Below are positions 9,193 through 52,627 of a DNA stretch of 64,000 bases, piece after piece (positions within the stretch are counted from its first letter, which is position 1; each line of letters opens with the position of its first letter). A program made the translations under genes and the position numbers. The stretch comes from a virus, in the IMG/VR virus record IMGVR_UViG_3300034108_000503, positions 1 through 64,000 of that record; one strand, given 5' to 3'. The notes under the pieces are model-generated. The model saw only the letters and a program-made list of their open reading frames with translations, made no database searches and was not told the DNA's origin.

Positions 9193-12100
9193 ATGGAATC
9201 GATTGATGGAACTGGTCTTCCTTCCCAACCGCAGACGCAGCCGCAGGCTCCAAAGAAGTGGAGCGAGATTGAACAGGAGAGCCTGATCTACTCGCTTCCG
9301 CCTGAGCAGCGGATGCCGATCTTCGACCAGTGGGTCAAGGACACCCAGAACTATCAGCTTCAGGCTGGAGGATTCGACAATCCGGAGTCCTTTCAGAAGT
9401 TCAAACTCAAGGAACTTCAGACCCGTCGCCGCCTCTCTTCCGAGATCGGTGCCGATCCGACTCCCGAGGAAGTCAATGCTGACTACGACAACTACGTCAA
9501 CATCATCAGCAGCGAGCAGCAGAGGCTTGCTGCGAAGGCACCGGATGAGAAGGCGTACAAGGATGTCATCGACGGAAACCGTGGCGCTGCCTTCGTGGGT
9601 GGTCAGATTGTATTCAATCCAAAGGTCACCAAGGATCCTACCGCTTATCGTAAAGCACTTGCAGAATCGGATGCTCCTGATGACATCAAGCTGATCTACG
9701 CCGGGAAGCGTGACGAGGAGGACAAGAAGTCTGTCGTCACAAGACGCAATGAACTTGCATCAAGGGTCATCACTCCGAAGGTTGCCGACAAGGTTGTCTC
9801 TGCAATCCAAGAAGGGAACGAGATCCTCGGCTTTGATGTCGGCACTCCTCAGTCACCTGCCATCGTCAAGGACAAGGCTGGAACATGGTCTGTGGTTGAT
9901 CCTGATTATGTGAACTGGGATGAATCCATTGTCGGTGGAATTGCCACCAAGGTTCTCCCTGCTGCCAATGCCCAGTACAAACCGATGCCGGAACTCAACG
10001 AGTTCCAGAAGAAGTACGGACTGACGGACGAAGAGATCCAGACCGACTACCTTGAAGCGCTCAAGCGAAGCGCACCGACATCCATTTCCCGCTGGGTCAC
10101 CAATGCTGACTCGCTGGAGGACTACGTCCCCGTTCTCAACTCCAAAGTCAGGGTTCTTGATCCTGACGTAAAGCCGAAGGTCTTCGTGCCGAATGCGGAT
10201 CTTGCCTTCGACAAGGAGGCTTACGATGCCGTCGTGGACAAGGCGAAGGCTCCGGATGAAGCAAAGGCTCTCGCCAAGGAAACCAGAACACAGATCGCTG
10301 AATCCATTGCGGCTCCGACATTCGACCTTCTCCTCCGCAACCGAGACGACTTTGCCCCGTATGCCAAGGACGCAAAGGATCCCCAGGCGAAGGTCGCTGC
10401 TGTGTCCAGGTACTACAAGGACAAGAAGGATCAGGCGTGGTACAATGACATCGGTGAGTTCTTCAGCCAGGGCATCGGCGGAATCGGGACCGGACTGACC
10501 AGACTGGTGAATCTTGCGAACGTGGTGCCTGCAATGTTTGGAGACGTGGAAGCTGCTGAACGTGCTGCCGCAGTCCAGAAAGCCGAAAACGAAAAGGCGC
10601 AGGCCGCTGAGATGGTTGGCAGCAGGATGGGTGCGCCAACTACCATCAAGCTGACCCGTGACGTTGCTGCCGTCCTTCCGGATCTCGCGGCTCAGATTGT
10701 GATCTCGATGGCTACCGGAGGTCTCGGTGCTTCCGCTGCTGCCGGATCTCTTGCAGCCAGGACCGGGGTTTCATACACCGCTGCCCGTGGAGCGATCAGT
10801 GCTGCCATGGCAAACGCCGAACGAGGTGCCGTCAGGGCTGCGGTTTCAAGGATCCCCAGCATCGCCGCTGGTTCCGTGGATGATCTTGCTGACGCAGCGA
10901 TTGCTACGGCAAAGCAGATGTCGTCGAAGAATCCTCTCAAGGGAGGACTTGGTCTTCAGCAGGCAGTTTCTGCCGCCACTGCCGGGATGAGCAGCATGGG
11001 AGGAACATTCCCCGAGGTGTACAGCCAGCTTCGGAATGAAGGCATGGCTCCAGCAAAAGCGCTGGATGCAGCAAGGAATGCTGCCGCAATCTCCGGTGCC
11101 ATCACCGGGTTGATCACATACGGATTCTCTGCCGCTGGTGCTGGTGGTGCCGAAGACATTGGCACGATGAGCCAGCGCAAGGCCGGGGACTTTACTGTTC
11201 GCGACTTGGTTGCTGCCGGACTTCCTGATGTACTCAGATCTGAATACGGAAAGCAGGCAGTCATCAAAACTGCGAGGGGAATCCTCGGAAAGGCTGGATC
11301 GGAAGGATTGGAAGAAGGCCTTGATCAGTTCATCGGCGGAATTTCCCAGTACCTCACTAACCCGTCAGCAGAAGCGCAGGACAAAAAGGTTTCGGACATC
11401 ATCCAGGAGTCGCTCTACGCTGGCGCACTTGGATTCATTGTCGGTGGTGGTGCTGCTGTCGGTGGACAGATCAGGCAGACTGCCGGGGGTCTTACTGCCG
11501 CTCAGATTGAAGCGGAGATGGCTGGACTCACTGGTGCGCCACCCGCGCCACCTGCACCTGCAACGCCGCCGCCACCAGTTGCTCCTGCTGCCGCACCTCC
11601 TGCTGCTGGTTCAACTCCACCTGCGCCTGCCGCTCCCGGTGCTGCTGCCGTTCCGCCAAGCCCAGCGCCACCACCAGCAGGTGCCGCCACTGTTGTCTCG
11701 CCAACCGGAACGACGACGGTATCCACTGCCGCGCCAAGTACCGTTGTGTCGGCTCAACCTCCGGGTGCAACAAGGCTTGCCACTCGTCTCGCGTCTCAGT
11801 TTGGAGTGGACATCACAACCGTCACTCCGTCCGGGGCAAACAACACCGTCACGCCGAATGACATCCGTAATGCTGCTCGGCAAAAGCAATTGGCAGAGGC
11901 AGAACAGAATGGCGTTGCGCCTCCTGAAGAACTTCCGCTTCCTCCACCTCCACCGAATCCGCTGCTCAGTGAAGCTGTCGGCATGCAGATTCAGTACGAA
12001 GGCTACGAAGGCACGCTGATTGATGACGAAGGCAGGCCCGCCTTGCAGACACCGGATGGAACGGTCATTGACATTCCGGCCACGTTTCTTGCTGACGAGG

Positions 12101-15100
12101 CAGTGAATGCCCTCGGCATTACAGTCACCGGAGATGCAGCGCAGGATAGAGCAGAAGTGCTTCGCATGTACGGCGAAACGGAAGGCGAGGCATTGCAGAT
12201 TATCTTTGGCGGCATCACGACGGACACTGATTCCGTTGTCGATATGGCTGAACTCGGCGTCTCACTGCTGCAACGCAAGGGACGCAAGACAATCAGGGTG
12301 CAGAACACACCAGAGTTCGCACGCATGGCGAGGGGAATCACGGACGAACAGATCCTCCTTGCCGAAGAGCAGATCACTCAGGCAATTGAAACCACTAGAA
12401 CCCAGACGGGAATCCCAGATGACCTCAAACAGAAAATCACAGCCAAACTTGAGGGAGACCTCAACATCCTCTCCCTCTTCATCGAGTCCCGCGACTCTTG
12501 GCAGAACGGACTCGTTCCTCGCGACATTGGCGTACCTTCGGAAACAAGGCAAGCCACAGCCGCAAGCCAAGCCCCAGCCCAGCAGACAAACCCCGCCGCA
12601 GTAAACGCAGCGTCAGTTGCTGCTGCCGTATCACAAGTTCCCGGCGCATCAATCACTGGTGCCGCGCTCCAACAGGCAGCGAATACTGCTCCTCCGGTTC
12701 CTGTTGAGGTACCTCCTGCTCCTGCTCAACAGCCAGTTGAAGCTGCTCCCGCTGCGACACCTGCCGCCCCGACCGTGGTCGAAGAGCCTGCTGCGGAAGC
12801 GAAGGCAGTCACCCGCGATGCGACGAAGCCGGAACAGATGACGAAAGATGAACTTTCGGCATTCAGAAAATCTGAGGCAATAAAAACAGCTAAAGATGAT
12901 CTTTCAAAAGCAAAAGACGGAACAGATAATCCGTATGCGTTTGGATTCAAAAGCAAAGCGGCGCTAGTAAGGGCAAGAGAAGATGCTTTACAAAAAGCAA
13001 CATCGGAAGATCAAGACCCTGATGTTTTCGGAACTGTCATTGAGGCGGCAAATCAAAAGCGCCCAATATTTGCCGGATTGATTGACTCTCTGAGTGATGT
13101 AGACCGGACAATTTCTCCCGGTCCAATGGGAGAACCAGGCGGTGTTGTGCGATCTGCAAGGAAGCAATTGATCGACAGTATTGAAGAAAAAGGATACGTC
13201 AAAGAAGGTGACCTGTATGTTTTCAAAGGAGAAAGCGAAACCGCTTCCGTAAAAGCAACAGAAGAGCCTGCCGTGGAAGCTCCGGTTGAAGCGACCGTGG
13301 AAACCAAACCAACAGAAGCACCAGTCGCTCCGGTTGAAGCTGCTACTGAACCTGTAGTCGAGCCTGCCGCTCCGAAGGAAGAAGCCCCAGCCACTGCCCC
13401 GAAGGCAGAGGCACCAGTCGAAGAGCCGAAGGCGGCGGTTGATATTGAGTTCGTAGAGGGAGACGCAGCGGAAGACGCTGATATTGTCTTTATGGTTTAC
13501 AGCGCAAATAACTATTACACCCTTTGGTTCAAGCAGAAATCCAAGGACAAGACAGCAAGACCAGTTTATGTAAAGAACCTACCATCAAACGAGAAGGATG
13601 CTTTCTCTGAAGCAAAGCAATACGCATCAAAAATTGCATCAACAGGCAAAATTCCGCAGGCTTTTGTCGGGAAAATTGATGTATACAAATTCAATACTGT
13701 CGGTCTCATCGACAAAGTTGTTGAAAGAGAAAAGCTCTCAACTCCAGTTTCACGGAATCTTGGTGATTCAGAAATCAGGTACGGCGAGTACGCTGGCAAA
13801 ACAATCAATCAACTTTTGTCCGGCGAAGAAAAGGAATTCGATTACGTTTTTTCCAATCTGATCAAAACCAACTTCTTTTCCAGCTACATTGCATCTCTGC
13901 CTGAGTTTGAGATCTTCAAGCAGAAACAAAAAGAGAAAGCCAAGCAAGTAGTCACAAGCGAAAGCAAGGCGGCTCTCAAAAAAGTTGGATTGAATGTATC
14001 AATCAACGAGGAAAGCGGGGAGATTCAGATCTCAGGCAAGACATTCGCATGGAGAGAAAAGCTCTCTTCCGTAAAAGGAAAATTCAACTATGAAGACAAA
14101 TTCTACTCAGTCACCCCAGAAGGATACAGACAACTTGCAGAAGAGATTGGAGGAATTAAGGTTTCTGATGGCGGATACGAGCGAGGCATCCCGGCTTATG
14201 TCACAGATGAAAGATATCGAAGACTTCGCAGAGAACGAGAACAGGATCCTGACAGAAGCGGACTACCTTCCGCTCCTGGACAGTATGTCTCGGTAGGAAC
14301 ACAAGATCTTCTCCGCAAAGGAGAGGAGTCCGGAATGCCTTCGTTTGTTATTGAGGAACAGATTGAAGATGTTGCCTTGATCAAAAGGGCATACACCGAA
14401 GGCAAACCTTTGTTCCTTCTTTCAAGCGAGCCGGGTTCAGGAAAAACCTACGTTCTTGGTGCAGCGATCAGGGAATTGATTGCCGCTGGCGCAAAGAAGA
14501 TCAATTACATTACTCTTAACGAAAACCTGATTGAGCAAATCAAAGCGGATCTTGCTGAGTATGGAATTCAGGATGTTTCGTTCTACACATACGACAGCAT
14601 CAAAAAGAAAGATGTTGGCGAAAGTGATGTTTTGATTTTTGATGAAGGTCACGCAATCAAGAATATCGGGAAAGGAACCGGGAGGGCAAAGAAAGGCGAG
14701 AACTTGATTCGCAGATCAAAGTTCACATTGGTTTCTTCCGCTACGCCATTTGAGAACCCGCTTGAGGTGGAGTATCTTGATGCGGCAGGTGTCTTTGATG
14801 ACAAGAACGAATTCCCGGAGGGGTTTGATGACTTCGTCTTGGCTTTTGGTGGATACGTTTTTTCAGTGACTGACTCAAGAGGAAACACGGTAAGTAAACT
14901 GGAGTTTGCAAGAAGCAAAGGATCAAACGAGGATCTCATGCAGGCCCGCGAGTTCTTCAGAAAGCGAGGAATGCTTACTACAAGAAGAACCAAGCTCGAC
15001 AGCAGCATGGTTGATGTTCAGCAAAAGAAAGTCCCTGCCGACAAATATTACGTTGATATTTTCAACGCCATCAACAAAGCCAAGGAAGACAAACAACTTA

Positions 15101-18100
15101 CCGTTTACGCGAGGCAGTGGTTCGTCAACTTCCAGAAACGACTTCTTGAAGCGTCAAAGATTGACTCTGCGATAGGTGAGGCGAGGAACGCAATCGACGA
15201 AGGAAGATACCCAATCATTTTTGTAGAAACGAAACAAGCAAAGGATTTCGATATCGACAAACTCGTAAAAGATGAGTTTGAGTACCAAAGGACAGTCGCA
15301 AGAGCGAAGATGATGGATGACTCCCCTCCTCCTCGTTCAGCATTTGATCTTCCTCCTGAAGGTGTTGTTGATGTTTTTGAAGAGGCAGTAAAGTCCTTCA
15401 AGATCAAGAATATTTCAATTCCTTCAATCAACGACAAGATCATATCGGCTTTTGGGAAGGAAACTGTTGCGTTCTTTACTGGAGATTTCACGGACCTTCA
15501 GGCGAAGAAGAATCTTTCCGAGTGGAGGAAGGGAACCAAGAAGCTGCTCGTCGCCACAATGGCAAAGGGTGGAACTGGTCTCTCATTGCATGACAAATCC
15601 GGTGATCATCCAACAACGCAGATCAATGTAAATCTTCCATGGTCGGCAACTCAATTCACACAGGTGGCCCAAAGATCCGCTAGGTACGGATTGAGATCGA
15701 AAGCCAAAATGATGTGGCTTTTCACCGACGAGATCGATTTCGACAGGAAGCTCGCAAATCTTGTTGGTGGAAGAATTCAAAGCATGAGCGCTTTGGTTGG
15801 CGGAAAAGAAAGCAAGATCGGAGAGACTCTTGAAGAGTGGAATATTGCAGACACGACTGACTCTGAGCGCAAGGACGTTAAGCCGACAGAGAAGCCAGCA
15901 GAGACAGCAGATGGATCGCCGGATCCAAATGCCACCGATGATCTGAGTGTTTCGCGAAGCACTGGTCTTCCGTACACTCCCGGAGAAGCACGCAAGGCAG
16001 GTGTCACCCGAATCGCCAGCGACCTTGGGTTGGTCAACGGGAACCAGGAATCTGTCTTCAGCGCTCTGGAGAAGATCTCTAAGTCCGGCAACCGCAGGCA
16101 CAGGAAGGTAGCCAAGGATCTGCTCAAGGTTCTGCAAGGCACTGATGTGACCGTCCAGATGATCTCAGTGGATCCATCCAAGAACGGATGGTTCGACCCG
16201 GCAACCGGAACGGTCTACCTCAACCTCGATGGGCCGCATGAAACTGGCATCGTCGAGACGCTGCTGCATGAACTGGTTCACGCCGGAACCGAGAGGGCAA
16301 TCAGCAATCCGGTCACCCCGGCGCAGAAAGCATTGGTGGATTCGCTCCAGAAGCAGATGGATTCCGCAAGGAAGGCGGCAGCGGATCTGATCAAGTCCAA
16401 GCTAGGCAAGGACGTGGATCTGACCAACTGGCGAGGACTGGTCAATGCGGCGAGGATGCTCAATGACTACGACTTCTTCGACGTGGTCTACGGTCTCTCC
16501 AGCCTGAGCGAGTTCGCAACCCATGCGACCACCAGCAAGGCGTTCCAGAAGTTCCTGAGCGGAGTCGGCAAGGATGGCAAACCGCTGGGTCTGTTTGATC
16601 GCTTTGTCCGTGTGATTGCCAAGTACTTCACCGGGCAAACAGACATTGCCACTGATGTCTACAACGACATCATCAGCCTCATTGGATCTGCCGACAAGGG
16701 ATCGGTGCGGATGCCGAACATCAACCGTGAGAAGTTTGGCGGGTTGGTTGGAAAGCCTGCGTCCGAATCCAGAGGTGTCACTCCTCAGATGGATGCGGAG
16801 TATATGTCCGCCGTTGAAGGCGGCGACACCAAGACCGCACAGAGATTGGTGGATCAGGCTGCGAAGGCGGCTGGGTATAATGGTGATCTTTGGCATGGAA
16901 CAAAATCTGAAAAAATAGGTGAGCTTTCCTTTGATGAATCAAATGAAGGATTTCATATCGGAACCAAAAAGGCCGCCGCAGAAAGACTGAAGTACATAAA
17001 TAAAACGCTTCCAGAAATGCGGCAGTCTAAGGATAACCTAATCAAAGTTTCAATAAAAGGAAACTACTTGACTGTTCCTGATGTCGGATACGGATATCTT
17101 GTTGACTGGATTGGAGCCGCTCAGGATGCGTTGCCAGTTGAAGGCCAGGAGATTGATGATCCATTCGATGTTACGCAGGAGCAATTCACTGAGTGGCTCA
17201 TGAAGAATGGGTACTCTGGGTTGAGATATGTAAACGAAATAGAAAATGCAGGAAGTACTAGTTATGCTGTATTTGATTTTGGTAGCGTGAAATCAACTGA
17301 GCCGATCATTAAGGACGACGCTGGTAACGTCATCCCGCTCTCCCAGCGCTTCAATCCTCAGTCTCCAGATATTCGCTTCTCCGAATCCAGAGGCATCATT
17401 GACCAGCAGCTTGCGCTCTACGCTCCGGACCTCAAGGTCTTCGTCGAGCCTGGGGTCAAAGATCCGATTGCGTACAATGGCATCGGCCTTGTGATCAACG
17501 AGGAAGCGGTCAGCGAGATGGACGAAGACGACGTGCGCCTCCAGACCCAGCGTGCCGCTCTTGCGTCGAGGTTTGCCGCTGACAACCCGCTGGCTGCGGA
17601 TGTGATCCAGAAGCCTGACCTGCTGTTCCCTGCGCTCATGGGTGATTCTGTGCGTGCTGGAGTGGCGAGATCGCTGATGGATGCCAGTCGCTTTGCTGCC
17701 GACAATGGGATGCAGCCTCTTGCGATGGATCTTGGGACCAAGGCTGATGCCTTTGGAGCCACCGGGATCATGCTGTCCGAGGCGAGAGGAGTGCCACCTG
17801 ATGGAGTCAGAAGGTTTGATCTTGTGGATGCTGTCCGCGCAGCAAAGGCTGGCGAAGCGTCCACTCCATTTGTTGCCCTGAACGAGGCGATCAACGCAAA
17901 CACCGAACTCACGCGACGGATCAGGGCTGAGAGTGAGCGGAGGAAAGCACCATACGCCAGAGGCAAAGGAGCGATCCTCCAGCAGATCATCACAGCAGGT
18001 AATTCCGGGCGTCTTCCAAAAGAGGCAATCAAGCCAATCACCGACTTTGTGAACTCGGTATCGGAGAAGGCTCTGGAGGATACGAGAATCTCACTGTCCG

Positions 18101-21100
18101 TAAAGCCAAAGAGCAGCACATTCGATTTCACGGAGTCCCTTGTGACTTTGGCTCTGAACGGTCTCGGTTCTTCTCCGAATGAGATTGACCGGACTGCTGT
18201 TCATGAATTCTGGCATGGTCTCTCCCGCTTTATTCCCGATGAGGAAATCGAGAAGATGCGCGTTGATTACGTCAAGTTCGTCAAGAAATACATCGCCAAG
18301 AATCCGTGGTTCGTTCCGTTCATTGGAAGGACGCACTTGAATGAGGATCAGTACGACGATTTCTCCAGGATGCTGTCCAAAGAGGAGATGGACTCAATCC
18401 CGTGGAAAGAATGGGAGACTCTTGATAACGGGAAGCGGGTGCGCGGAATCAAGTGGGACAAGGAGAACTACCGTCTCTTCCGCCTTGATGAGTGGGTGGT
18501 TGAAACCATGGCGGATCTGGTGCGCCGAAAGCAGGAAAGACCAACGACTGTCCTTGGTAAGATGGCTCGCCTGATCCGGGACTTCATTGACACGCTGAAG
18601 CAGGCTCTCGGTGATCCGTACCTGCGTGCGCTGGATGCGATGACCATTCCGGACGAGGCGTTCAATGCCGTTATCGAAAGGGATGGTCCAATTGAAAACA
18701 ATCCTCCCGTGATGTACGGAGGCGTAGCCGAAGGGATGAACAATCAGTTCGTCCTCGGAATGTACGCTGGCGAGAAGTCGCTGGAGAATATGCCAGAAGA
18801 ACGCAGGGCGTTCATGCAGGATTCCCTGAATTCAGCAAGAGCAATGGCTGCGGCTGGCAAGACAAGCGAGGAGATCCGTGCTGTGACCGGATGGTTCCCC
18901 GGAAAGTACGACGGCAAGATGCGGTGGGAAGTGCCGGATAATGAAGCGGAACTTAGGCTTTCTGAATACAGACAGAAAAGAAAGGACGGAAGCTCACAGG
19001 AGGATATTGTCCGTGAATTTTTTCAGGCAAAACAGCAATCCGCAATGGAGCTTGCATTAAAAAAAGCATACAATCTTAAAGGCAAAGACTTGATTGATTT
19101 TAGCCGTAGGTTTGATTCTGAAAAGAAAAAAGAAAATCTCGGGGTTTATTCGTTTTATCTAAATGAGGAGAATAGAAGCCGAGGAAGAATTCCTCTCAGC
19201 TATATTCTTAAGCATGATCAATTGTTTGATCTGTACCCAGAACTTAGGTTTATGCCAGTGTCGTTTAATGCAGACGACATGGAGGCAAGTCCATTTGCCA
19301 TTGGCGCATTCAACAGTAGTTTTAATGGAATTTCACTAAATCCAATATATGCTTTTGAAAATGAACAGGATGCTTTATCGACTGTTCTACATGAAATTCA
19401 GCACGCAATTCAAAAAACGGAGGATTTCGCAAAAGGAGCATCTCCGGATTCATATTTGTTTGCTGATGTTGCATATAAGGATTGGCTTCTCAGGGCAGAG
19501 CTTGTCCAGCTTTCAGATGAAATGAACAAGCCGCTATCTGAGGCTGTTGAAATGTATAAACCATTCCCTCAAGATTACGAATCATTGCAATCAGCACTCA
19601 AGGCTTATAATTCAGATAATGATTTCAAGGATTCCGTTTCAGTAAATATTAAATACTGGAAACCAAGGGGTTCTGTAAACATGTTTGATGCGTACACAAA
19701 CACCGCAGGCGAAATCGAAGCCCGTGATGTTCAGGCAAGGCAAGCATTGACACCCGAGCAGCGTGCCGCTGTTGCACCATACAGCAGCGAGAACATCGCT
19801 CCGGAAGATGCGATTGTCAGCTACTCAACCGCCAGAGGCTACACCCCGGCACCCGGCACATATGTTGCGGTCCCATCCAGCGGATGGATGGCGGCGACCG
19901 GATGGATTGCGTCGAAGTTCAGATCCAGAGGCAACCTCACTCAGGCTGGGCTTGAGGTCACGATCATGAACGAGCAGGAGAAGAAGGCGGCAGCAAACGC
20001 GGCACGCTTCCTTGGCAATAATCTCGGCAAGCAGATTGAGAAGGTCTTCGGAAGGACCGAGAAGGACACCAAGAACTTCCGGGTGTTCACGACTGATGCC
20101 AGCGGCAAGCCCTCGTTTACCAGACCGTATGCGTCTCGGGCCGAGGCCGATGCCTTTGCTGCGAAGATGGGGTACACCGACTTCATGGTAGCCACCCCGG
20201 AGGAACTGATGAACATCGCCCTCGGGAACAGCATGCCGTCGCTGACTCCGAAGCAGGAGGAGGAGCTTGAAGCTATTCGCGAGCGCGGGATTGCTGCCGT
20301 TCAGGCGAAGACCGACAAGCTCACCGAGCAGTACCTCCGCGATAACGCTGCCCTGATTGAGAAGATTCGCAAGTCCGGCGGAACTGCTGCGGAACTCGAC
20401 AAGCTCAAGGACAATCGTGAGATCTTCCAGAAGGAGATGCTCAAGTACAACGATTCCCTGAAGGCTCTCTTTGAGGAAAAGTACAAGGAAGTGAACCGCA
20501 AGTTCATGCTGGAGAACAAGGAGAAGTTCCTTTCGCTTCAGGCGAACGCCAAGATGTTCCTGCCGGATTCCATCCTCAATGAAATCGAAGAAGCCAGGGC
20601 GGCTATCGACGGCAGGTCCAGGGAGATTGCCGGGATCGACTACCTGATGAAGGACGGCATGATGCGGATCGTGTTCTCAGCACAGGAGGGAATCTACGTC
20701 ACCCGTGCATACGAGGCGTTTGAGGCGAAGAATCGTGAGGACTACGTTAACTTCCTGAACGAAGCGTACCGCTCCACGGTCGAAGGCGAGATGGTTGGCG
20801 GTAAACCGCTGAAGTACCGCGAGGTTGCGCGTGAGCGGATCACTCCGCTGGTGAACGTCCTCACCGGGAAGATCATTGAGAAGCGGGCAAAGGACATCAT
20901 TGCGGAGCAGAATGCTGACATGGTCAGCGATCTCCGTGATGAGATGAGGATCATGGATGAGAAGTCCATGTACAAGAAGGACAGGAAGGACAAGGAGATG
21001 GACATGTACTTGTACCTGAGCGACGAGTACATTCTGGTCAGGGCAAAGAATGAAGTGAAGCGCAGGCGGGCGCAGTACCGCAGGGAGTTCATCCGAGGGA

Positions 21101-23916
21101 TTGCCAACTACCTCGTCAGTAATCCCGCCCTTCTCAGCCTTCCTGCTGGTGCAGGGAAGAAGGAGATCCGTGCTGCTGCCATGAAGATGGGGCGGGATGC
21201 CTACAATGACCCTGATTCGTTTGATAAACTGATCACCGACTCCGCAATCGACCGGATCAAGCTGCTGAAGTACAAGCTGATGCCGCTGGGTGATGCGCTC
21301 ATTCAGGCTCAGAATGAATACCAGATTGCCGAGAAACTCCGGAGGGCTGGCAAGCCGGACACATCTGGAATCAAATGGCGCACGTCCATCGGGAACAATC
21401 AGAAGCAGAGCTTCATTGAAGCGCTCAACTCGGACTTCCAGAAGAACCTGGACTTCATCCTCGGTGCGCCAGTCAGCGGATCCGGCGGCAAGGGAGTAGC
21501 CGATAGCTGGCAGAAGCTGAACGATGAGATCCTGATGCATCGCGACAACATTCCGGCGTACATGCGGAAGTTTTGGGGAGAGACTGAGTCTCCGATTCAG
21601 CGGATCACCCAGACGATCACGAAGCAGGCATCGCTGATTGCCGACTCGGTGTTCCGCGAAAGGATCGCCAGCCTCGGACTGGAAGAGGGGTGGGCCGTGA
21701 AGAAGGAGGACTACGACAGTAACCCAAACAAGTACCCAGGCTACAAGCGAATCATCGAGGGCGACGAAGGCTACGAGGACAATCCTCTGGCTGACCTCTA
21801 CGTTGACGGCAACATCTACAACTCGCTGGAGATCCGCAGGTCCGGCAATCAACCATCCAACGATGCATTCAAGTTCATCGGATACTGGGTTGGTGCTGCT
21901 CTCTGGAATGCGACATCCGGTTTGATGCGTGGTGCTGTCCGGAACCTTGCGTCCTTCCCGGCATGGGGAATGAACTCTGGTCAGAACCTTGCCAACCCGA
22001 TCACCATGGCGCGTGTGATGTCCAACTTCGGTATCGCATCCGGAGCAATCGCTGAACACCTTGCCACCGTGCCAAGAGTGAAGGGTGGAACCGAAGGCGA
22101 ATTTGTCGGTTTGAGGTGGAGCAAGAACCTGATCGGCACTGCGCTTCAGGCATACTCATTCACTGGTCCTGGGTCGAAGATCTTCGGAGGAATCTCCGGT
22201 ATCCTCGGATCAATCTCCAATGTGACTGGCAGGGCGGAAAAGGAATCAGACCGCAAGGCGTTCCAGGATCTGTACACCAGGGCAGTCAATGTCGGTGTTG
22301 CTGACAACAACATTGAACGGAACGACATGGCAAGACTCCTCGGGTACGAGGACGAACTCACCCGCAGACCAATCACTGGAGGCAAACTTGCCCGCTTCCT
22401 GCCATCGTGGATGCGCCCTGATGACATGCAGGGTGCATTGGATTACCTCGTACAGACAGCCAAGTCCACGGCAGGGAACCGTACCGAGTACTACTCATCG
22501 ATGGACTCGCTGACCAAGATCACGTTCTGGCTCAGTGAGATGGAGGAGCAGGCGAAGATCCACGCCAAGGACAAGGCTCAGTTCAATGAGTGGCGCGGAG
22601 AGAACGGCATGTTCCAGAACCTTCCGAAGGAGCTTCAGATCAAGGCCGCGAACAACATCAATGACACCATCCAGTCTGACTCTCGGGTTCTGGAAGGCGT
22701 GAACCAGTTCCGTAAAGCCGGATGGGGTAAGATCCTCTCTCCGTTCCTTGCGTCGAAGACCGAATTCATCCGCACTGCCCAGAATTCCTACCGGATTGCG
22801 CTGGATGAAATGAAGAACGGTGTGAACAAGAAGGAGAAAGCCAGGGGCGCAAGGCGTCTGGTTGCTGCGCTGACTGGTCACATCGGATACTCTGCTGTCG
22901 CATCGTTCCTTGCGGTCACCGTCATGCGGATGGTTGGTGGCGGGGACGATGAGGAGAAGGAAGGCGTGACGCTCGACGGTTCGCAGATTGATTCGCTCCG
23001 GAAACTGCTGCCAGAGTGGGCGCAGAATAAGGTGCTGGCTGGACGAGCATACGCCAATGGCGAGATCGACTGGGCTGACGTTTCCTTCCAGCTTCCGTTT
23101 GGATGGATGAACGAAATCTTCATCTCCGGACAGAAGGCAATCGACAAGAGCAACGCGGAAGACATCCTCGCTGCCGAGGTCACGATGCAGATCGTGTCTG
23201 ACTTCATCGGCAACTTTGCCTCCAGGCAGATTGCAGTTGAGGCTGCATCCAATGCTCTTTCTGGCTTCGACCGGATCCGGAACAAGACGATCTGGGAAAA
23301 GGACGACAGTGTCTACGTCAAGATCGCTAAGGGGATCAAGTACTACTTGAATTCCGCAGGGTATCCCGGTGACGTTCGTGATGCCATCAAGATGTACAAG
23401 GCTGCATACGGGATCGAGGAGAATGGCAGCAAGTACAAGATGGATGCAGTCCTCCTGTCCATGCTCACTGGTCAGAGCATCCGCACCCAGAAGATCGACG
23501 AGATGTACCTCTCTCAGATGCGGCAAGCCCAGGATGATCTGCGTATCGTGAACCGATCCCTCTACCAGTCGGCTCTCCGGGATGCCAACAACGTGGAGCC
23601 TGAAGATGTCGCAGCCGACACGAAACTCGCCATGACCCGCCACGCCGAAACCATGCGTGAACTCGGGCAGATGTTCTCCTCGGCAACAAGCCTGCTGGAG
23701 ACTGGCGGCATGGCTCCAATGGATGCCAGAAAGAAGATCCTTGCGATCATGCGAAGCGAGAAGGTCAAACTCAGCCAGCGTGATGAGCGGGCAATCGCCA
23801 ACCAGTACATCCCGCCATGGCGAGGATCAGATGTCACCGAGAGGGAAATCCGCAGGCTCGACCGCAAGCATAACGACGGTCGCTTTGAGGCTTACCTTGA
23901 CGCGATCCGCAGGTAA
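9193..23916 (+). CDS. Giant (4907 aa) polyvalent internal virion protein: Strawberry-notch-type helicase, 3 HExxH peptidase-like modules, ART-like and LPD23-like modules
   Basis: Single uninterrupted ORF. Helicase motifs: Walker A EPGSGKT (14428), DEGH (14641), SAT, GGTGLSLHD and LPWSA..Q..QRSAR. Other motifs: HELVH (16267), WHGT (16891), HEFWH (18202), TGWFPGKYDGKMRWEVPD (LPD23-like) and HEIQH (19390) with GEIEAR. Confidence 0.85.
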   Translation: MESIDGTGLPSQPQTQPQAPKKWSEIEQESLIYSLPPEQRMPIFDQWVKDTQNYQLQAGGFDNPESFQKFKLKELQTRRRLSSEIGADPTPEEVNADYDNYVNIISSEQQRLAAKAPDEKAYKDVIDGNRGAAFVGGQIVFNPKVTKDPTAYRKALAESDAPDDIKLIYAGKRDEEDKKSVVTRRNELASRVITPKVADKVVSAIQEGNEILGFDVGTPQSPAIVKDKAGTWSVVDPDYVNWDESIVGGIATKVLPAANAQYKPMPELNEFQKKYGLTDEEIQTDYLEALKRSAPTSISRWVTNADSLEDYVPVLNSKVRVLDPDVKPKVFVPNADLAFDKEAYDAVVDKAKAPDEAKALAKETRTQIAESIAAPTFDLLLRNRDDFAPYAKDAKDPQAKVAAVSRYYKDKKDQAWYNDIGEFFSQGIGGIGTGLTRLVNLANVVPAMFGDVEAAERAAAVQKAENEKAQAAEMVGSRMGAPTTIKLTRDVAAVLPDLAAQIVISMATGGLGASAAAGSLAARTGVSYTAARGAISAAMANAERGAVRAAVSRIPSIAAGSVDDLADAAIATAKQMSSKNPLKGGLGLQQAVSAATAGMSSMGGTFPEVYSQLRNEGMAPAKALDAARNAAAISGAITGLITYGFSAAGAGGAEDIGTMSQRKAGDFTVRDLVAAGLPDVLRSEYGKQAVIKTARGILGKAGSEGLEEGLDQFIGGISQYLTNPSAEAQDKKVSDIIQESLYAGALGFIVGGGAAVGGQIRQTAGGLTAAQIEAEMAGLTGAPPAPPAPATPPPPVAPAAAPPAAGSTPPAPAAPGAAAVPPSPAPPPAGAATVVSPTGTTTVSTAAPSTVVSAQPPGATRLATRLASQFGVDITTVTPSGANNTVTPNDIRNAARQKQLAEAEQNGVAPPEELPLPPPPPNPLLSEAVGMQIQYEGYEGTLIDDEGRPALQTPDGTVIDIPATFLADEAVNALGITVTGDAAQDRAEVLRMYGETEGEALQIIFGGITTDTDSVVDMAELGVSLLQRKGRKTIRVQNTPEFARMARGITDEQILLAEEQITQAIETTRTQTGIPDDLKQKITAKLEGDLNILSLFIESRDSWQNGLVPRDIGVPSETRQATAASQAPAQQTNPAAVNAASVAAAVSQVPGASITGAALQQAANTAPPVPVEVPPAPAQQPVEAAPAATPAAPTVVEEPAAEAKAVTRDATKPEQMTKDELSAFRKSEAIKTAKDDLSKAKDGTDNPYAFGFKSKAALVRAREDALQKATSEDQDPDVFGTVIEAANQKRPIFAGLIDSLSDVDRTISPGPMGEPGGVVRSARKQLIDSIEEKGYVKEGDLYVFKGESETASVKATEEPAVEAPVEATVETKPTEAPVAPVEAATEPVVEPAAPKEEAPATAPKAEAPVEEPKAAVDIEFVEGDAAEDADIVFMVYSANNYYTLWFKQKSKDKTARPVYVKNLPSNEKDAFSEAKQYASKIASTGKIPQAFVGKIDVYKFNTVGLIDKVVEREKLSTPVSRNLGDSEIRYGEYAGKTINQLLSGEEKEFDYVFSNLIKTNFFSSYIASLPEFEIFKQKQKEKAKQVVTSESKAALKKVGLNVSINEESGEIQISGKTFAWREKLSSVKGKFNYEDKFYSVTPEGYRQLAEEIGGIKVSDGGYERGIPAYVTDERYRRLRREREQDPDRSGLPSAPGQYVSVGTQDLLRKGEESGMPSFVIEEQIEDVALIKRAYTEGKPLFLLSSEPGSGKTYVLGAAIRELIAAGAKKINYITLNENLIEQIKADLAEYGIQDVSFYTYDSIKKKDVGESDVLIFDEGHAIKNIGKGTGRAKKGENLIRRSKFTLVSSATPFENPLEVEYLDAAGVFDDKNEFPEGFDDFVLAFGGYVFSVTDSRGNTVSKLEFARSKGSNEDLMQAREFFRKRGMLTTRRTKLDSSMVDVQQKKVPADKYYVDIFNAINKAKEDKQLTVYARQWFVNFQKRLLEASKIDSAIGEARNAIDEGRYPIIFVETKQAKDFDIDKLVKDEFEYQRTVARAKMMDDSPPPRSAFDLPPEGVVDVFEEAVKSFKIKNISIPSINDKIISAFGKETVAFFTGDFTDLQAKKNLSEWRKGTKKLLVATMAKGGTGLSLHDKSGDHPTTQINVNLPWSATQFTQVAQRSARYGLRSKAKMMWLFTDEIDFDRKLANLVGGRIQSMSALVGGKESKIGETLEEWNIADTTDSERKDVKPTEKPAETADGSPDPNATDDLSVSRSTGLPYTPGEARKAGVTRIASDLGLVNGNQESVFSALEKISKSGNRRHRKVAKDLLKVLQGTDVTVQMISVDPSKNGWFDPATGTVYLNLDGPHETGIVETLLHELVHAGTERAISNPVTPAQKALVDSLQKQMDSARKAAADLIKSKLGKDVDLTNWRGLVNAARMLNDYDFFDVVYGLSSLSEFATHATTSKAFQKFLSGVGKDGKPLGLFDRFVRVIAKYFTGQTDIATDVYNDIISLIGSADKGSVRMPNINREKFGGLVGKPASESRGVTPQMDAEYMSAVEGGDTKTAQRLVDQAAKAAGYNGDLWHGTKSEKIGELSFDESNEGFHIGTKKAAAERLKYINKTLPEMRQSKDNLIKVSIKGNYLTVPDVGYGYLVDWIGAAQDALPVEGQEIDDPFDVTQEQFTEWLMKNGYSGLRYVNEIENAGSTSYAVFDFGSVKSTEPIIKDDAGNVIPLSQRFNPQSPDIRFSESRGIIDQQLALYAPDLKVFVEPGVKDPIAYNGIGLVINEEAVSEMDEDDVRLQTQRAALASRFAADNPLAADVIQKPDLLFPALMGDSVRAGVARSLMDASRFAADNGMQPLAMDLGTKADAFGATGIMLSEARGVPPDGVRRFDLVDAVRAAKAGEASTPFVALNEAINANTELTRRIRAESERRKAPYARGKGAILQQIITAGNSGRLPKEAIKPITDFVNSVSEKALEDTRISLSVKPKSSTFDFTESLVTLALNGLGSSPNEIDRTAVHEFWHGLSRFIPDEEIEKMRVDYVKFVKKYIAKNPWFVPFIGRTHLNEDQYDDFSRMLSKEEMDSIPWKEWETLDNGKRVRGIKWDKENYRLFRLDEWVVETMADLVRRKQERPTTVLGKMARLIRDFIDTLKQALGDPYLRALDAMTIPDEAFNAVIERDGPIENNPPVMYGGVAEGMNNQFVLGMYAGEKSLENMPEERRAFMQDSLNSARAMAAAGKTSEEIRAVTGWFPGKYDGKMRWEVPDNEAELRLSEYRQKRKDGSSQEDIVREFFQAKQQSAMELALKKAYNLKGKDLIDFSRRFDSEKKKENLGVYSFYLNEENRSRGRIPLSYILKHDQLFDLYPELRFMPVSFNADDMEASPFAIGAFNSSFNGISLNPIYAFENEQDALSTVLHEIQHAIQKTEDFAKGASPDSYLFADVAYKDWLLRAELVQLSDEMNKPLSEAVEMYKPFPQDYESLQSALKAYNSDNDFKDSVSVNIKYWKPRGSVNMFDAYTNTAGEIEARDVQARQALTPEQRAAVAPYSSENIAPEDAIVSYSTARGYTPAPGTYVAVPSSGWMAATGWIASKFRSRGNLTQAGLEVTIMNEQEKKAAANAARFLGNNLGKQIEKVFGRTEKDTKNFRVFTTDASGKPSFTRPYASRAEADAFAAKMGYTDFMVATPEELMNIALGNSMPSLTPKQEEELEAIRERGIAAVQAKTDKLTEQYLRDNAALIEKIRKSGGTAAELDKLKDNREIFQKEMLKYNDSLKALFEEKYKEVNRKFMLENKEKFLSLQANAKMFLPDSILNEIEEARAAIDGRSREIAGIDYLMKDGMMRIVFSAQEGIYVTRAYEAFEAKNREDYVNFLNEAYRSTVEGEMVGGKPLKYREVARERITPLVNVLTGKIIEKRAKDIIAEQNADMVSDLRDEMRIMDEKSMYKKDRKDKEMDMYLYLSDEYILVRAKNEVKRRRAQYRREFIRGIANYLVSNPALLSLPAGAGKKEIRAAAMKMGRDAYNDPDSFDKLITDSAIDRIKLLKYKLMPLGDALIQAQNEYQIAEKLRRAGKPDTSGIKWRTSIGNNQKQSFIEALNSDFQKNLDFILGAPVSGSGGKGVADSWQKLNDEILMHRDNIPAYMRKFWGETESPIQRITQTITKQASLIADSVFRERIASLGLEEGWAVKKEDYDSNPNKYPGYKRIIEGDEGYEDNPLADLYVDGNIYNSLEIRRSGNQPSNDAFKFIGYWVGAALWNATSGLMRGAVRNLASFPAWGMNSGQNLANPITMARVMSNFGIASGAIAEHLATVPRVKGGTEGEFVGLRWSKNLIGTALQAYSFTGPGSKIFGGISGILGSISNVTGRAEKESDRKAFQDLYTRAVNVGVADNNIERNDMARLLGYEDELTRRPITGGKLARFLPSWMRPDDMQGALDYLVQTAKSTAGNRTEYYSSMDSLTKITFWLSEMEEQAKIHAKDKAQFNEWRGENGMFQNLPKELQIKAANNINDTIQSDSRVLEGVNQFRKAGWGKILSPFLASKTEFIRTAQNSYRIALDEMKNGVNKKEKARGARRLVAALTGHIGYSAVASFLAVTVMRMVGGGDDEEKEGVTLDGSQIDSLRKLLPEWAQNKVLAGRAYANGEIDWADVSFQLPFGWMNEIFISGQKAIDKSNAEDILAAEVTMQIVSDFIGNFASRQIAVEAASNALSGFDRIRNKTIWEKDDSVYVKIAKGIKYYLNSAGYPGDVRDAIKMYKAAYGIEENGSKYKMDAVLLSMLTGQSIRTQKIDEMYLSQMRQAQDDLRIVNRSLYQSALRDANNVEPEDVAADTKLAMTRHAETMRELGQMFSSATSLLETGGMAPMDARKKILAIMRSEKVKLSQRDERAIANQYIPPWRGSDVTEREIRRLDRKHNDGRFEAYLDAIRR

Positions 23917-26650: not shown

Positions 26651-28000
26651 CTATTTGCGCCATGCCTTCTGGGGTTTCTCCTGCTTCCTCCTTGGCGGAT
26701 CGTCGTCATCCTCGAAACGCTGGAGCGCACCATTCCGGCGGACTGCAACGCTGCGGTTGGATGCACCGAAGCGGTTCTTGAGGATCTTTATCCTCCCGGT
26801 ATCGGCAGTCTCCTCGTTTCCGTCCTCGCTTTCGTGGACATCCATGTCGATCCGAAGGAACACCTGCGGAGCATCAAGGATTGCCCTCGCGTCACGGATC
26901 ATGCCGTCGTCATTCAGTTGGACCGGAGCGATGAGCGTGCATCCCAGTTCCTTCCGCAACCTCTCTGCCGTCTCGGAGATTGTCTTGAGCATCTGATCCG
27001 CCCGCTCGCCGGAACGCTGGGCAACAGGCACAAGCTGAAGGTAGTCGATCACAATGAAGTCCAAGGGCTTCTTTCGGTGGAGGTTCCTGGCGTGGGAAGC
27101 AACGCCTTCCAGCGAGATGTACGGTGATTCGGTGTAGTGCAGATCCCATCTTCCGAGGGACTCAATGGCTTTCTGGATTCTGGTGAAGTCACCCTGTTCC
27201 CGCAGCGGGGTGCGGCCCATCACCTTGTCGAGAGGGATACCCGACTCCCGTGCCAGATCCCGCATCACGATCTGGATTGCTGACATCTCGTAGCCAACCA
27301 CGAACCCGCGCCTTCCAGCGCACGATAGTCTGCCAGCCATCTGCATCGCCAGCAGAGTCTTCCCGTGTCCCTGCTTTCCTCCGATCAGGATGTACTCCCG
27401 ACGGATCCCTCCAGCCAGCAATTCGTCCAGTCCTTTGATCCCGGTCGCGATGGCAGGATCAACGTCAGTCTCCACTCCCTGCTCGATGATGTCGATGTAG
27501 CGAAAGAGGACATCCTTGATTGGAATCAGGTTCGCGCTCCTGCTCTGGACGGTGGCGGTATCCAGTTCCCGGATCATTACTCCAACCTTTTCTCTCCAGT
27601 CATCCGGCCCATCGTAGGCGACAGCCTCCAGCCGGGACGCTATCTTTGCAACGCTACGGCGTCTGGATGCGCTCCTGACGGCTTCGCAGTATGATCGTAC
27701 CGCAGACGGCGCAGACGCTGCTGTGGCGATTTCCGAGATGGTTCCCGCGCCCCCCACGGAATCCAGCTTCTGAGCGTCAATCAGGTGGGCCGTAAGCGAG
27801 ACAGCATCCACCGGGTTTCCGTCAGCGTGGCGGGAGATGATCAGGTCGAACAGGTAGGCGCAGTGTCCGGTGACGAAGTCCGAGGACTTGATGATCTCAA
27901 TCGCCTGGTCGATGGCGTACTCCGGTGCCTGCATCAGGCAGGAGATGACTGCTCTGTCCATTTCCTCCGACCCCGGAGGCTTCTTCAGTTCATGGTTCAT
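26651..28000 (-). CDS. dnaB: Replicative DNA helicase, DnaB family
   Basis: DnaB N-terminal domain (PVDAVSL...LDSVGG), Walker A GKQGHGKT, YEMS, IDYLQL, QLN and KNRFG arginine finger. Confidence 0.9.
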   Translation of the reverse strand: MNHELKKPPGSEEMDRAVISCLMQAPEYAIDQAIEIIKSSDFVTGHCAYLFDLIISRHADGNPVDAVSLTAHLIDAQKLDSVGGAGTISEIATAASAPSAVRSYCEAVRSASRRRSVAKIASRLEAVAYDGPDDWREKVGVMIRELDTATVQSRSANLIPIKDVLFRYIDIIEQGVETDVDPAIATGIKGLDELLAGGIRREYILIGGKQGHGKTLLAMQMAGRLSCAGRRGFVVGYEMSAIQIVMRDLARESGIPLDKVMGRTPLREQGDFTRIQKAIESLGRWDLHYTESPYISLEGVASHARNLHRKKPLDFIVIDYLQLVPVAQRSGERADQMLKTISETAERLRKELGCTLIAPVQLNDDGMIRDARAILDAPQVFLRIDMDVHESEDGNEETADTGRIKILKNRFGASNRSVAVRRNGALQRFEDDDDPPRRKQEKPQKAWRK

Positions 28001-31766: not shown

Positions 31767-32561
31767 TCAGTCCTTCCACTTCGGCCATAGGAGGTTCTCA
31801 GGAGCGGCAGGATATCCCGGCCATACGCCTGTCTCGGTGCATTGCTTGTGCAGATCAATGATCTTGTCCATCTGCCGCTGCCCCTCCTCAATTGCCTCAT
31901 CAGGGAAGACGTATGGCTTCACTAGATACGGCTTGGCTGACTCAACCGCCAGCAGCATGTAGACTGGTTCCTCCTCCAGTCCTTCAGCCAGAGAGACTGC
32001 CTGCGTGTACCACTGACGCTGGATGTGATATCCCAGCTTCCGGCACTTCCGGGAAAACTCAGTAGGCGATGCGTCACCCGTGGTCTTCAGGTCGATGATC
32101 ATCCTTCGGCCTTGGGAATCATATCCCAGCATGTCCGGCAAAGCCTTGATTGGAACGCCACGGTACTCAGTCAGCACCGGAGTCTCGCGAACCGGGCAGA
32201 GTTGCATGACAGCCTGGAAGATCGGATCATCCTCCAGTGCCAGCCTCATGCCCATCACGTTGTCGTATTCCTCTTGGGAGAAGATCGGCAGAGTCTGTGC
32301 TGCCGTCCATTCCTTGCACCACTTCTTGGATCCATGCCATGCGTCTGCGGGGTCATCCTCCCGATGCGCTGGCTTGATTGCAAAGTCCCTGCTGATGCCT
32401 TGCAGCAGATCGTGGACTGCGGTTCCCATGCGGATGGCAATGGAGTCCAGTTCCTCTGGTTCCTCCTTCGCCTGCTGGAAATGCGCAGGGGTCTTGAATG
32501 CCAGCAACTTCGCGAGGCTGAAGTTCAGGGCGGGATGCGCCCGGTATTCATCAATTGTCAT
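31767..32561 (-). CDS. RecE/exonuclease VIII-like PD-(D/E)XK nuclease (DUF3799-type)
   Basis: YRAHPALNFS, GTAVH, KALPD, IIDLKTT, YHIQ..WY and WPGY. Confidence 0.85.
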   Translation of the reverse strand: MTIDEYRAHPALNFSLAKLLAFKTPAHFQQAKEEPEELDSIAIRMGTAVHDLLQGISRDFAIKPAHREDDPADAWHGSKKWCKEWTAAQTLPIFSQEEYDNVMGMRLALEDDPIFQAVMQLCPVRETPVLTEYRGVPIKALPDMLGYDSQGRRMIIDLKTTGDASPTEFSRKCRKLGYHIQRQWYTQAVSLAEGLEEEPVYMLLAVESAKPYLVKPYVFPDEAIEEGQRQMDKIIDLHKQCTETGVWPGYPAAPENLLWPKWKD

Positions 32562-40452: not shown

Positions 40453-41211
40453 TCAGACTCTGATCACAAACCCGCTTTTATCCGCTTTCGCTTTTCCTTT
40501 TGTCAGCAACCCGAACACCGTGCCGCCTGGTCGCAGAAACGTCAGGTCTTCCTTGTCGCCATCGATGACCGGACAACCCGCCCAACGCTCCGGGAGGCGC
40601 GGAGCAAAAACCGCAGCGACGCATCCCCCTGATTGCAGGAATGAACGGGAGAGCCTGTCACTCTCGGGCGTCTCAGAGCGTGACCAGGTCAGATGGTAAT
40701 TCGCCGGAAAATCCCCGATGAGAAAACGGCTCATCCGGCCTTTTACTTTTGTGTAGTCGTAAAACTGAACGCCCTTAAACCGTTCCGGCAGCGTCTCACC
40801 GTTTGCCGTTTTGATTGATTCCCAGGATTGATCGCTTGTCAGATTCAAGCGGATGGCGGGGCGGAGGCGGTGACGGTCTGCGAGCCTAAGAAACGCCTCT
40901 AGTTCCCTCACCAGTTGATCCATGAATTGCGCTCTGTCTCGAAGGAAATAGAGCGTTCTGGCAAGGCGTGCTATTTGCACCTGAGGAAACGCACCATGCC
41001 CGGCAGTGACCAAGCAGACTTCCCGGCAACCCTCAGACGACCCAGGGCAGACGTTTTTCCCTGACAGGCTAGCCGGGGAAAAATGAATTCCAGTGGTAAT
41101 CCATCCGACAGCATGCCCCTTTTCTAGTTTTGGGTTGTTCGCAGTGAGTATGGCGCGGAGTTGCGCCTTATAGGCAGCGTAAGCGGCTTCGATTTCTTGA
41201 GAGAATTTCAT
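40453..41211 (-). CDS. Gene product 88 (GP88) family, radical-SAM-like Cys motif
   Basis: NVCPGSSEGCREVC, RLNLTSD..W, FYDYTK, NYHLTWS and VIDGDKEDLTF. Confidence 0.8.
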   Translation of the reverse strand: MKFSQEIEAAYAAYKAQLRAILTANNPKLEKGHAVGWITTGIHFSPASLSGKNVCPGSSEGCREVCLVTAGHGAFPQVQIARLARTLYFLRDRAQFMDQLVRELEAFLRLADRHRLRPAIRLNLTSDQSWESIKTANGETLPERFKGVQFYDYTKVKGRMSRFLIGDFPANYHLTWSRSETPESDRLSRSFLQSGGCVAAVFAPRLPERWAGCPVIDGDKEDLTFLRPGGTVFGLLTKGKAKADKSGFVIRV

Positions 41212-52144: not shown

Positions 52145-52627
52145 TTAGGAAGTGAAGTGACGGGACCAGAATGCGTCATCCGTCCTCATGATGATTTCAC
52201 GGCTCGGGAACTTGTCTTCAATCTCAGGAAAGAACGCATCCGTGTAATTTACGTCGTAATTCAGCATCGTCAGGTACAGTTCGTCGAGATTTGATTCAAG
52301 CAGCGTCCAGATCTCCACACCTCCGATCACCCAGATGCTGCCTGGGTATTCCGGCTTATCAATGGCAGTGAGCGCAGAAAGCTCATCCATGTCTCTCGCA
52401 ATCTCAATCCCGTCGCACGGCTTCATCGTTCTGCTCATCACGATGTTCCTCCTGCCTTTCAGAACGGACGGTAGAGATTCCCAGGTCTTCCGGCCCATGA
52501 TGACGGTTCCCCCCATGGTCATCCTCCTGAAGAACCTGAGGTCTTCCGGTAGATACCAAGGGATGGTTCCGTTCAGTCCGACTGCCCGGTTCTGCGCCAT
52601 GGCGGCGATTCCAATCCACTTCTTCAT
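52145..52627 (-). CDS. folA: Dihydrofolate reductase
   Basis: IPWYLPEDLRFFR..T.G..VIMGRKTWESLP..L.GR.NIV.SR, VIGG and DAFFP. Confidence 0.95.
   Translation of the reverse strand: MKKWIGIAAMAQNRAVGLNGTIPWYLPEDLRFFRRMTMGGTVIMGRKTWESLPSVLKGRRNIVMSRTMKPCDGIEIARDMDELSALTAIDKPEYPGSIWVIGGVEIWTLLESNLDELYLTMLNYDVNYTDAFFPEIEDKFPSREIIMRTDDAFWSRHFTS

Follow-up and report, generated by a model that had tools for sequence, protein, structure and literature searches.

A peripheral subunit-binding domain of the 2-oxoacid dehydrogenase type in a giant polyvalent protein of an uncultured phage

A PSBD inside a giant phage protein

The DNA considered here, referred to as the window, is the first 64 kb (64,000 nucleotides) of the 72,271-bp IMG/VR virus record IMGVR_UViG_3300034108_000503, a record rated 100% complete. 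On its plus strand, one uninterrupted open reading frame (ORF; 9193-23916) codes for a giant polyvalent protein of 4,907 residues. This protein holds a domain of the peripheral subunit-binding type (PSBD; Pfam family E3_binding) at residues 859-905 (11767-11907, plus strand), delimited by Pfam, a family profile, an AlphaFold2 (AF2) model and the structural comparison programs Foldseek and VIA. In 2-oxoacid dehydrogenase complexes, PSBDs are known as the adaptors by which E1 and E3 are attached to the core. A first-pass annotation, made from the letters alone, had pointed to a PSBD-like peptide following an Ala/Pro linker at 11767-11865. The translation of this interval on the plus strand, ATRLATRLASQFGVDITTVTPSGANNTVTPNDI, agrees with that description letter for letter and corresponds to residues 859-891 of the ORF.

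The assignment to the PSBD family was borne out by sequence searches in both directions. The curated cut-off of the Pfam E3_binding model (PF02817) is 23.7 bits. When scanned alone, a 53-residue piece scored 27.1 bits (E 4.8e-6) and a 113-residue piece 25.5 bits, no further Pfam family being listed for either at E <= 10. Within the whole 4,907-residue protein the model scored 18.8 bits, under the cut-off. A six-frame search of the phage record found PF02817 at a single place, 11776-11868, with 26 bits, and the model matched all eight phage-family copies of the domain (best E 1.2e-7), the window's own copy scoring 27.2 bits in that comparison. A search of the PDB chains with the single sequence gave ten matches at E <= 10, all of them PSBDs or a PSBD-bearing hydrolase and all in one register. 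The profile A3, built from the eight phage-family copies, matched 31 PDB sequences at E <= 1. PSBDs or PSBD-bearing chains make up 28 of these, the best being 1w4i (E 5.2e-9), and the three unrelated chains were found at E 0.28-0.94.

In the reciprocal direction, a profile of the 236-residue module to which the domain belongs (A1) was searched against 1.84 billion proteins and returned 77 matches, eight of which are long relatives of the giant protein. The other 69 align mainly to profile positions 3-70. Sixty-four of them were scanned, leaving out P0015, P0016, P0018, P0019 and P0063, which match other parts of the profile or are repeats. E3_binding was present in 64 of the 64, and 2-oxoacid_dh and Biotin_lipoyl were both present in 30. 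Each of ten reciprocal matches examined individually proved to be an E2 chain in full, carrying two or three PSBDs. A weak match to TMP_3 (tape measure, E 6.4e-4) was also seen in one of the 64.

The fold was modelled with AF2 from the eight phage sequences only, with a mean predicted local distance difference test score (pLDDT) of 89.8. In the model, helix 1 (model residues 9-18, residues 861-870) is followed by a loop with a helical turn and then by helix 2 (model residues 36-52, residues 888-904), so that the predicted structure has the two helices in about 35-45 residues typical of a PSBD. Among the Foldseek matches listed against the PDB, every one of the first 28 (ranks 1-31) is a PSBD or E2 entry, the query-normalised template modelling (TM) scores being 0.50-0.76. 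The shortness of the domain keeps their E-values at only about 1e-2. After re-alignment with VIA, ranks 1-25 are all PSBDs (Z 8.1-4.6, root-mean-square deviation 0.8-2.9 over 36-53 residues) and the first unrelated chain appears at Z 3.9. One convincing match was found in the BFVD library of viral structures (R4THZ4, TM 0.74), and a search of the Atlas gave E3_binding clusters at 0.75-0.76, taken as a lead only. Since the hidden Markov model, the reciprocal profile search, the predicted fold and the conservation described below agree, residues 859-905 are a genuine PSBD sharing common ancestry with the PSBDs of the E2 chains of 2-oxoacid dehydrogenases.

A conserved module and its setting

The PSBD is carried between two flexible stretches. 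Upstream of it, an Ala/Pro-rich flexible linker (residues 768-841; 11494-11715, plus strand) has an Ala plus Pro content of at least 60% in 30-residue windows and is separated from the domain by the Thr/Ser/Val-rich residues 842-858. Downstream lies a Pro-rich linker read off the sequence (residues 906-931; 11908-11985, plus strand), which includes PPEELPLPPPPPNP and whose residues 919-922, the residues 1-4 of the model of the downstream fold, have a pLDDT below 50. The Ala/Pro arm and the Pro-rich stretch correspond to the flexible linkers that accompany PSBDs. A second Ala/Pro-rich linker is present further along the giant protein (residues 1161-1205; 12673-12807), which thus has several flexible arms of the E2 style.

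The Pro-rich linker leads to a small SH3-like beta domain (residues 932-960, YEGYEGT..DDEGRPALQ; 11986-12072, plus strand), with predicted strands at model residues 14-42. A conserved helical region completes the module (residues 961-1088; 12073-12456, plus strand), as defined by the alignments A1 and A4 and by helices modelled with moderate confidence. The model of the downstream 170 residues as a whole, a small SH3-like sheet and helices, is of moderate confidence (pLDDT 74.1). Foldseek gave no match to this downstream part in the PDB at E <= 0.001, and the helical region has no clear counterpart there. For the SH3-like domain, local matches of about 40 residues to the beta domain of MscS and the C-terminal domain of BirA (probability 0.8-0.9, E about 1) are only a lead to its identity.

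The same arrangement recurs in relatives of the giant protein. Four giant relatives were found by a word-based search (P0003, P0004, P0005 and P0006, at 98%, 99%, 63% and 50% identity, respectively), the most distant of which already has a precomputed PF02817 match. Further relatives, P0007-P0011, came from a profile search of the library. In addition, 23 IMG/VR loci were found by scanning with a pattern in which the column corresponding to the 'GR' of the PSBD loop was fixed to Thr, Glu or Ala. The order PSBD, linker, small SH3-like beta domain and helices is observed in nine giant proteins and in 23 of the 23 IMG/VR loci, the module being kept in P0003 and P0005-P0011. The gene itself is cut differently among P0007-P0011 and loci L087-L107: the module is preceded by about 260-300 residues of the ORF in one clade and followed by about 330 in another. 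In the window all parts are fused in one gene. The gene splits flank the module and never fall inside it in any relative. Identity among the relatives that share the module goes down to 29% over the downstream part, and because the module is common to relatives this distant, its acquisition is probably old. The first-pass annotation had proposed that the phage captured or mimics the PSBD module; the homology stands, and a recent capture is unlikely.

The domain is also constrained at the codon level. Compared with L002, a 95%-identical relative, the 47 codons of the PSBD show three synonymous and no non-synonymous changes, and the 169 codons of the downstream part 17 synonymous and two non-synonymous changes. 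The least constrained part is the Ala/Pro linker, with 13 synonymous and eight non-synonymous changes in 72 codons. The PSBD is under purifying selection.

The rest of the giant protein has the composition of a polyvalent protein, in which numerous unrelated enzymatic or binding domains, those of LPD type included, are joined in a single giant polypeptide of a phage or plasmid. Pfam matches were obtained for LPD23 (44.4 bits) and ResIII (28.3 bits; ResIII/SNF2-type, SF2 helicase), together with weak matches to DUF6782 and to a SprT-like metallopeptidase. Three HExxH motifs are found at residues 2359, 3004 and 3400. The relatives P0003, P0004 and P0006 have a precomputed match to PF18760, which we take to be the ART domain of polyvalent proteins; in the Pfam scan of the window's own giant protein, PF18760 is not listed at E <= 10. 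Residues 2250-3100 (15940-18492), a piece that contains the first and second HExxH motifs, match the PHROGs family phrog_2206, 'virion RNA polymerase' (E 3.1e-9, profile positions 2036-2238 of 3406). This match hints at a domain common to the giant protein and N4-type packaged proteins. The PHROGs search gave no match for residues 1-850 or 900-1700. The mean Kyte-Doolittle hydropathy over 19 residues reaches at least 1.5 in two segments only (residues 491-509, 10663-10719; residues 4556-4575, 22858-22917), the remainder of the Gly/Ala-rich N-terminal region being only mildly hydrophobic.

The giant gene lies at the end of a plus-strand block that contains a virion structural protein, and a terminase gene (58403-60253) is on the same strand. 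Judging from this gene order and from family resemblance, it is plausible that the giant protein is packaged in the virion and ejected. Nothing in the genome points to a dehydrogenase complex of the phage's own. The Pfam models Biotin_lipoyl and 2-oxoacid_dh have no match in the giant protein, and no lipoyl domain, E2 catalytic core or E3 dimerisation domain was found in the 72-kb phage record. The PSBD is thus located elsewhere than between the lipoyl and catalytic domains of an E2 or E3BP chain.

Signals of the host are scarce. No related isolate phage was found: neither blastn nor tblastn with the region returned a match from 50,697 phage records, and the terminase had one weak match (21% identity, a Curtobacterium phage). 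No prophage relative was detected in the genome contigs scanned with the module alignment, and no tRNA gene was found in the window. A thymidylate synthase (ThyA) gene on the minus strand (52624-53436) scores 376 bits against Pfam. Its product shares 52-60% identity with genomes from numerous phyla, including Myxococcota, Burkholderiales and Bacteroidota, and therefore gives no host signal. The minus-strand block also codes for a DnaB-type helicase (26651-28000), a PD-(D/E)XK nuclease (DUF3799; 31767-32561) and a GP88-family protein (40453-41211).

The binding surface and the possible partners

According to a review, the surfaces of PSBDs carry many positive charges that are needed for binding. 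The phage domains were compared with 143 PSBD copies from the 64 cellular-type matches after alignment to the phage profile. The comparison is conservative, the set of copies being skewed in favour of phage-like sequences. At the first helix-1 column, Arg or Lys is present in 76% of the E2-type copies and in one of the eight phage copies, the window having Thr. At the second helix-1 column the figures are 62% and two of eight, the window having Arg, and 18 of the 21 distinct phage sequences have Asp or Glu there. At the 'GR' loop column they are 58% and none of eight, the window having Thr; this last count rests on the eight profile-found sequences only, the 23 loci being fixed at that column by the scan pattern. 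The phage family thus mostly lacks the basic residues usual in E2 PSBDs. The caution given in the first-pass annotation, about divergence at a helix-1 Arg and in the GRI loop, was correct and extends to the whole phage family. Compared with the Thermus PSBD solved with E3 (2eq8_C), the window's domain keeps one of the four basic residues at these places. In the Geobacillus PSBD the contact residues are presumably Arg135, Arg139 and Arg156. The available portions of PMC8421416, PMC10849603 and PMC11754459 list no E3 contact residues.

The phage family has invariant residues of its own. These are the Arg of T-R-L-A, whose position is occupied by Pro in 65% of the E2 copies, the Pro-Asn of T-P-N-D and the Arg after D-[VI], all of them without an E2 counterpart. 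The net charge of the domain is 0 and -2 in two of the eight family copies, and by net charge the phage copies are not separable from the comparison set.

With the usual basic residues mostly lost and other residues invariant, a partner other than E3 or E1 held in the canonical way appears the more likely, a view to which we give about even confidence. On this reading, the PSBD would have entered a lineage of uncultured phages long ago. It lies between an Ala/Pro-rich and a Pro-rich arm of a giant polyvalent protein, probably a component of the virion, and makes up the first half of the fixed module of PSBD, linker, SH3-like domain and helices. There it may act as a flexibly tethered knob for protein docking, small and able to fold by itself, in the same mechanical role as in E2. 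Its binding surface would have been remodelled, most of the basic residues typical of E2 being lost and the family having invariant residues of its own. The knob could bind a further virion or ejection protein of the phage, or else some other protein of the host.

Several points weigh against such a remodelled docking knob. To our knowledge the only known function of PSBDs is the binding of E1 and E3, so that the canonical partner is the simplest reading. No phage protein emerged as a candidate partner, and the packaging of the giant protein in the virion is argued from gene order and family resemblance. Any one of the basic columns is also non-basic in 24-42% of the E2-type copies, which makes the loss suggestive and not decisive. 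The window's own copy keeps the Arg of the second helix-1 column. Finally, the family-invariant arginines could make up a shifted basic patch.

The foremost alternative is that the canonical partnership is preserved. After ejection, the PSBD would bind the dimer of the host E3 (dihydrolipoamide dehydrogenase) or E1. Either the helicase, peptidase and ART-like parts of the giant protein would thereby be tethered to 2-oxoacid dehydrogenase complexes, or E2 would face competition for E3 and E1. Both sequence and fold identify the domain as a true PSBD, and it stands on an E2-style Ala/Pro arm and is under purifying selection; as the phage has no E1, E2 or E3 part of its own, only the host could supply a canonical partner. 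The window's copy has R861 and R865 in helix 1 and R892 and R896 at the start of helix 2, and, as seen above, E2-type copies can themselves lack a usual basic residue. Docking on host E1 or E3, as put forward in the first-pass annotation, is however weakened by the state of the three usual basic columns, which are non-basic in most members of the phage family, the second helix-1 column being acidic in most distinct sequences. The low net charge of two copies and the difference between the residues invariant in the phage family and those conserved in E2 PSBDs also count against it. A complex prediction with two copies of DLDH_ECOLI, a stand-in for the host E3 run with no controls, and A3 residues 5-48 gave a score of 0.01 against a mark of 0.32, which speaks neither for nor against binding. 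Canonical docking is considered possible but rather unlikely. Its more specific form, in which the ejected giant protein docks on host E3 (Lpd) or E1 dimers at infection through a shifted basic patch of the invariant arginines, is somewhat more doubtful.

The PSBD might also have no specific partner and serve as a passive element, a tiny fast-folding spacer or refolding unit in a protein that passes through the tail in an extended state. PSBDs are among the smallest autonomous folds, of about 35 residues, according to the review PMC6270654, several of the matched PDB titles call them ultrafast folders, and long extended linkers flank the domain on both sides. A spacer would nevertheless need neither an invariant surface nor a fixed neighbour. 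The surface arginines of T-R-L-A and after D-[VI] are invariant in relatives as low as 29-38% identical, and at 23 of 23 loci the PSBD comes strictly paired with the downstream domain. Such a role is improbable.

Self-association has a precedent: in gammaproteobacterial pyruvate dehydrogenase complexes the PSBD dimerises through helix 2 and its C-terminal extension, as reported in PMC10849603. The phage PSBD might likewise dimerise, as in E. coli E2p, and pair copies of the giant protein. Helix 2 is long in the model (17 residues), and 50-53 residues align with the E. coli PSBD (9h1n, 8oqj). The helix-2 extension is however not conserved, one clade having an Ala-rich stretch here and the other 'YISEQ..KFKPL', which leaves this arrangement very unlikely.

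Still less probable is the DNA tether also suggested in the first-pass annotation, in which the two-helix domain would bind DNA like a LEM, SAP or HeH motif. A small helix-loop-helix would be at home in a protein probably travelling with DNA, and rare Rho-N/SAP HEH domains are listed for polyvalent proteins in PMC5512222. This suggestion found little to sustain it: no SAP, LEM, HeH or Rho_N match is listed by Pfam at E <= 10, and the outstanding structural matches are PSBDs, the DNA binders returned by Foldseek (RacA, the MerR family, spore SASP) reaching TM scores of only 0.32-0.40 at E > 2, compared with 0.50-0.76 for PSBDs. The net charges of 0 and -2 also speak against it. Lastly, a chance resemblance of a low-complexity stretch, to which the shortness of the domain, the sub-threshold score within the whole protein and the modest Foldseek E-values might point, has a negligible probability and is ruled out by the above-threshold scores of the piece scanned alone, the profile match at E 5.2e-9, the 64 of 64 reciprocal matches and a confident model for which VIA ranks 1-25 are all PSBDs.

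Comparison with known systems

A conserved PSBD under purifying selection, with invariant surface residues of its own, in a giant and probably injected phage protein leaves two alternatives. If docking is canonical, these phages would target a central metabolic hub in an undescribed way. Otherwise, virion proteins would be reusing the minimal PSBD fold as a tethered knob for docking in general. In the literature searched, no paper describing phage virion proteins with a PSBD turned up.

The giant protein shares with the polyvalent proteins of phages and conjugative elements surveyed by Iyer et al. (2017, PMC5512222) its great size and multi-domain build, in which LPD23 is combined with an SF2 helicase and peptidase-like HExxH modules. 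It differs from them by its PSBD, the main text of that survey containing no mention of E3-binding, peripheral subunit, PSBD or dehydrogenase.

PSBDs outside E2 chains are also found in cellular-type proteins, where, as in the phage, a mobile module is reused in other architectures (P0032, P0049, P0021, P0017 and 7qjm). P0032 is a Ser/Thr protein kinase with three C-terminal PSBD copies, while P0049, P0021 and P0017 consist of four tandem copies and 7qjm is a PSBD-bearing alpha/beta-hydrolase. P0014 is also among the non-E2 PSBD proteins. In contrast with the phage domains, the cellular-type copies are canonical and high-scoring, with 83-161 bits summed, and have neither the T-R-L-A/T-P-N-D signature nor the SH3-like partner.

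The closest parallel in sequence and fold is with the PSBDs of E2 and E3BP chains (1w4i, 2eq8, 1ebd, 1w85, 2f60, 9h1n), which in this comparison cover the pyruvate, 2-oxoglutarate and branched-chain 2-oxoacid dehydrogenase complexes. Both kinds of domain have about 40 residues, two helices with a loop between them and an Ala/Pro-rich linker, and the core A..LA...G[VI]D[LI]..[VI]..[ST]G....[VI]T..D[VI] is kept in the phage domain. In contrast with the E2 and E3BP domains, that of the phage stands outside an E2 chain, neither the protein nor the phage genome having a lipoyl or acyltransferase domain, and the first Gly of its G[ST]G turn is replaced by Pro. The basic residues of helix 1 and of the 'GR' loop are replaced as well, and helix 1 opens with the invariant T-R-L-A, where E2 chains most often have Pro at the position of the Arg. 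The phage PSBD is moreover always followed by the SH3-like domain.

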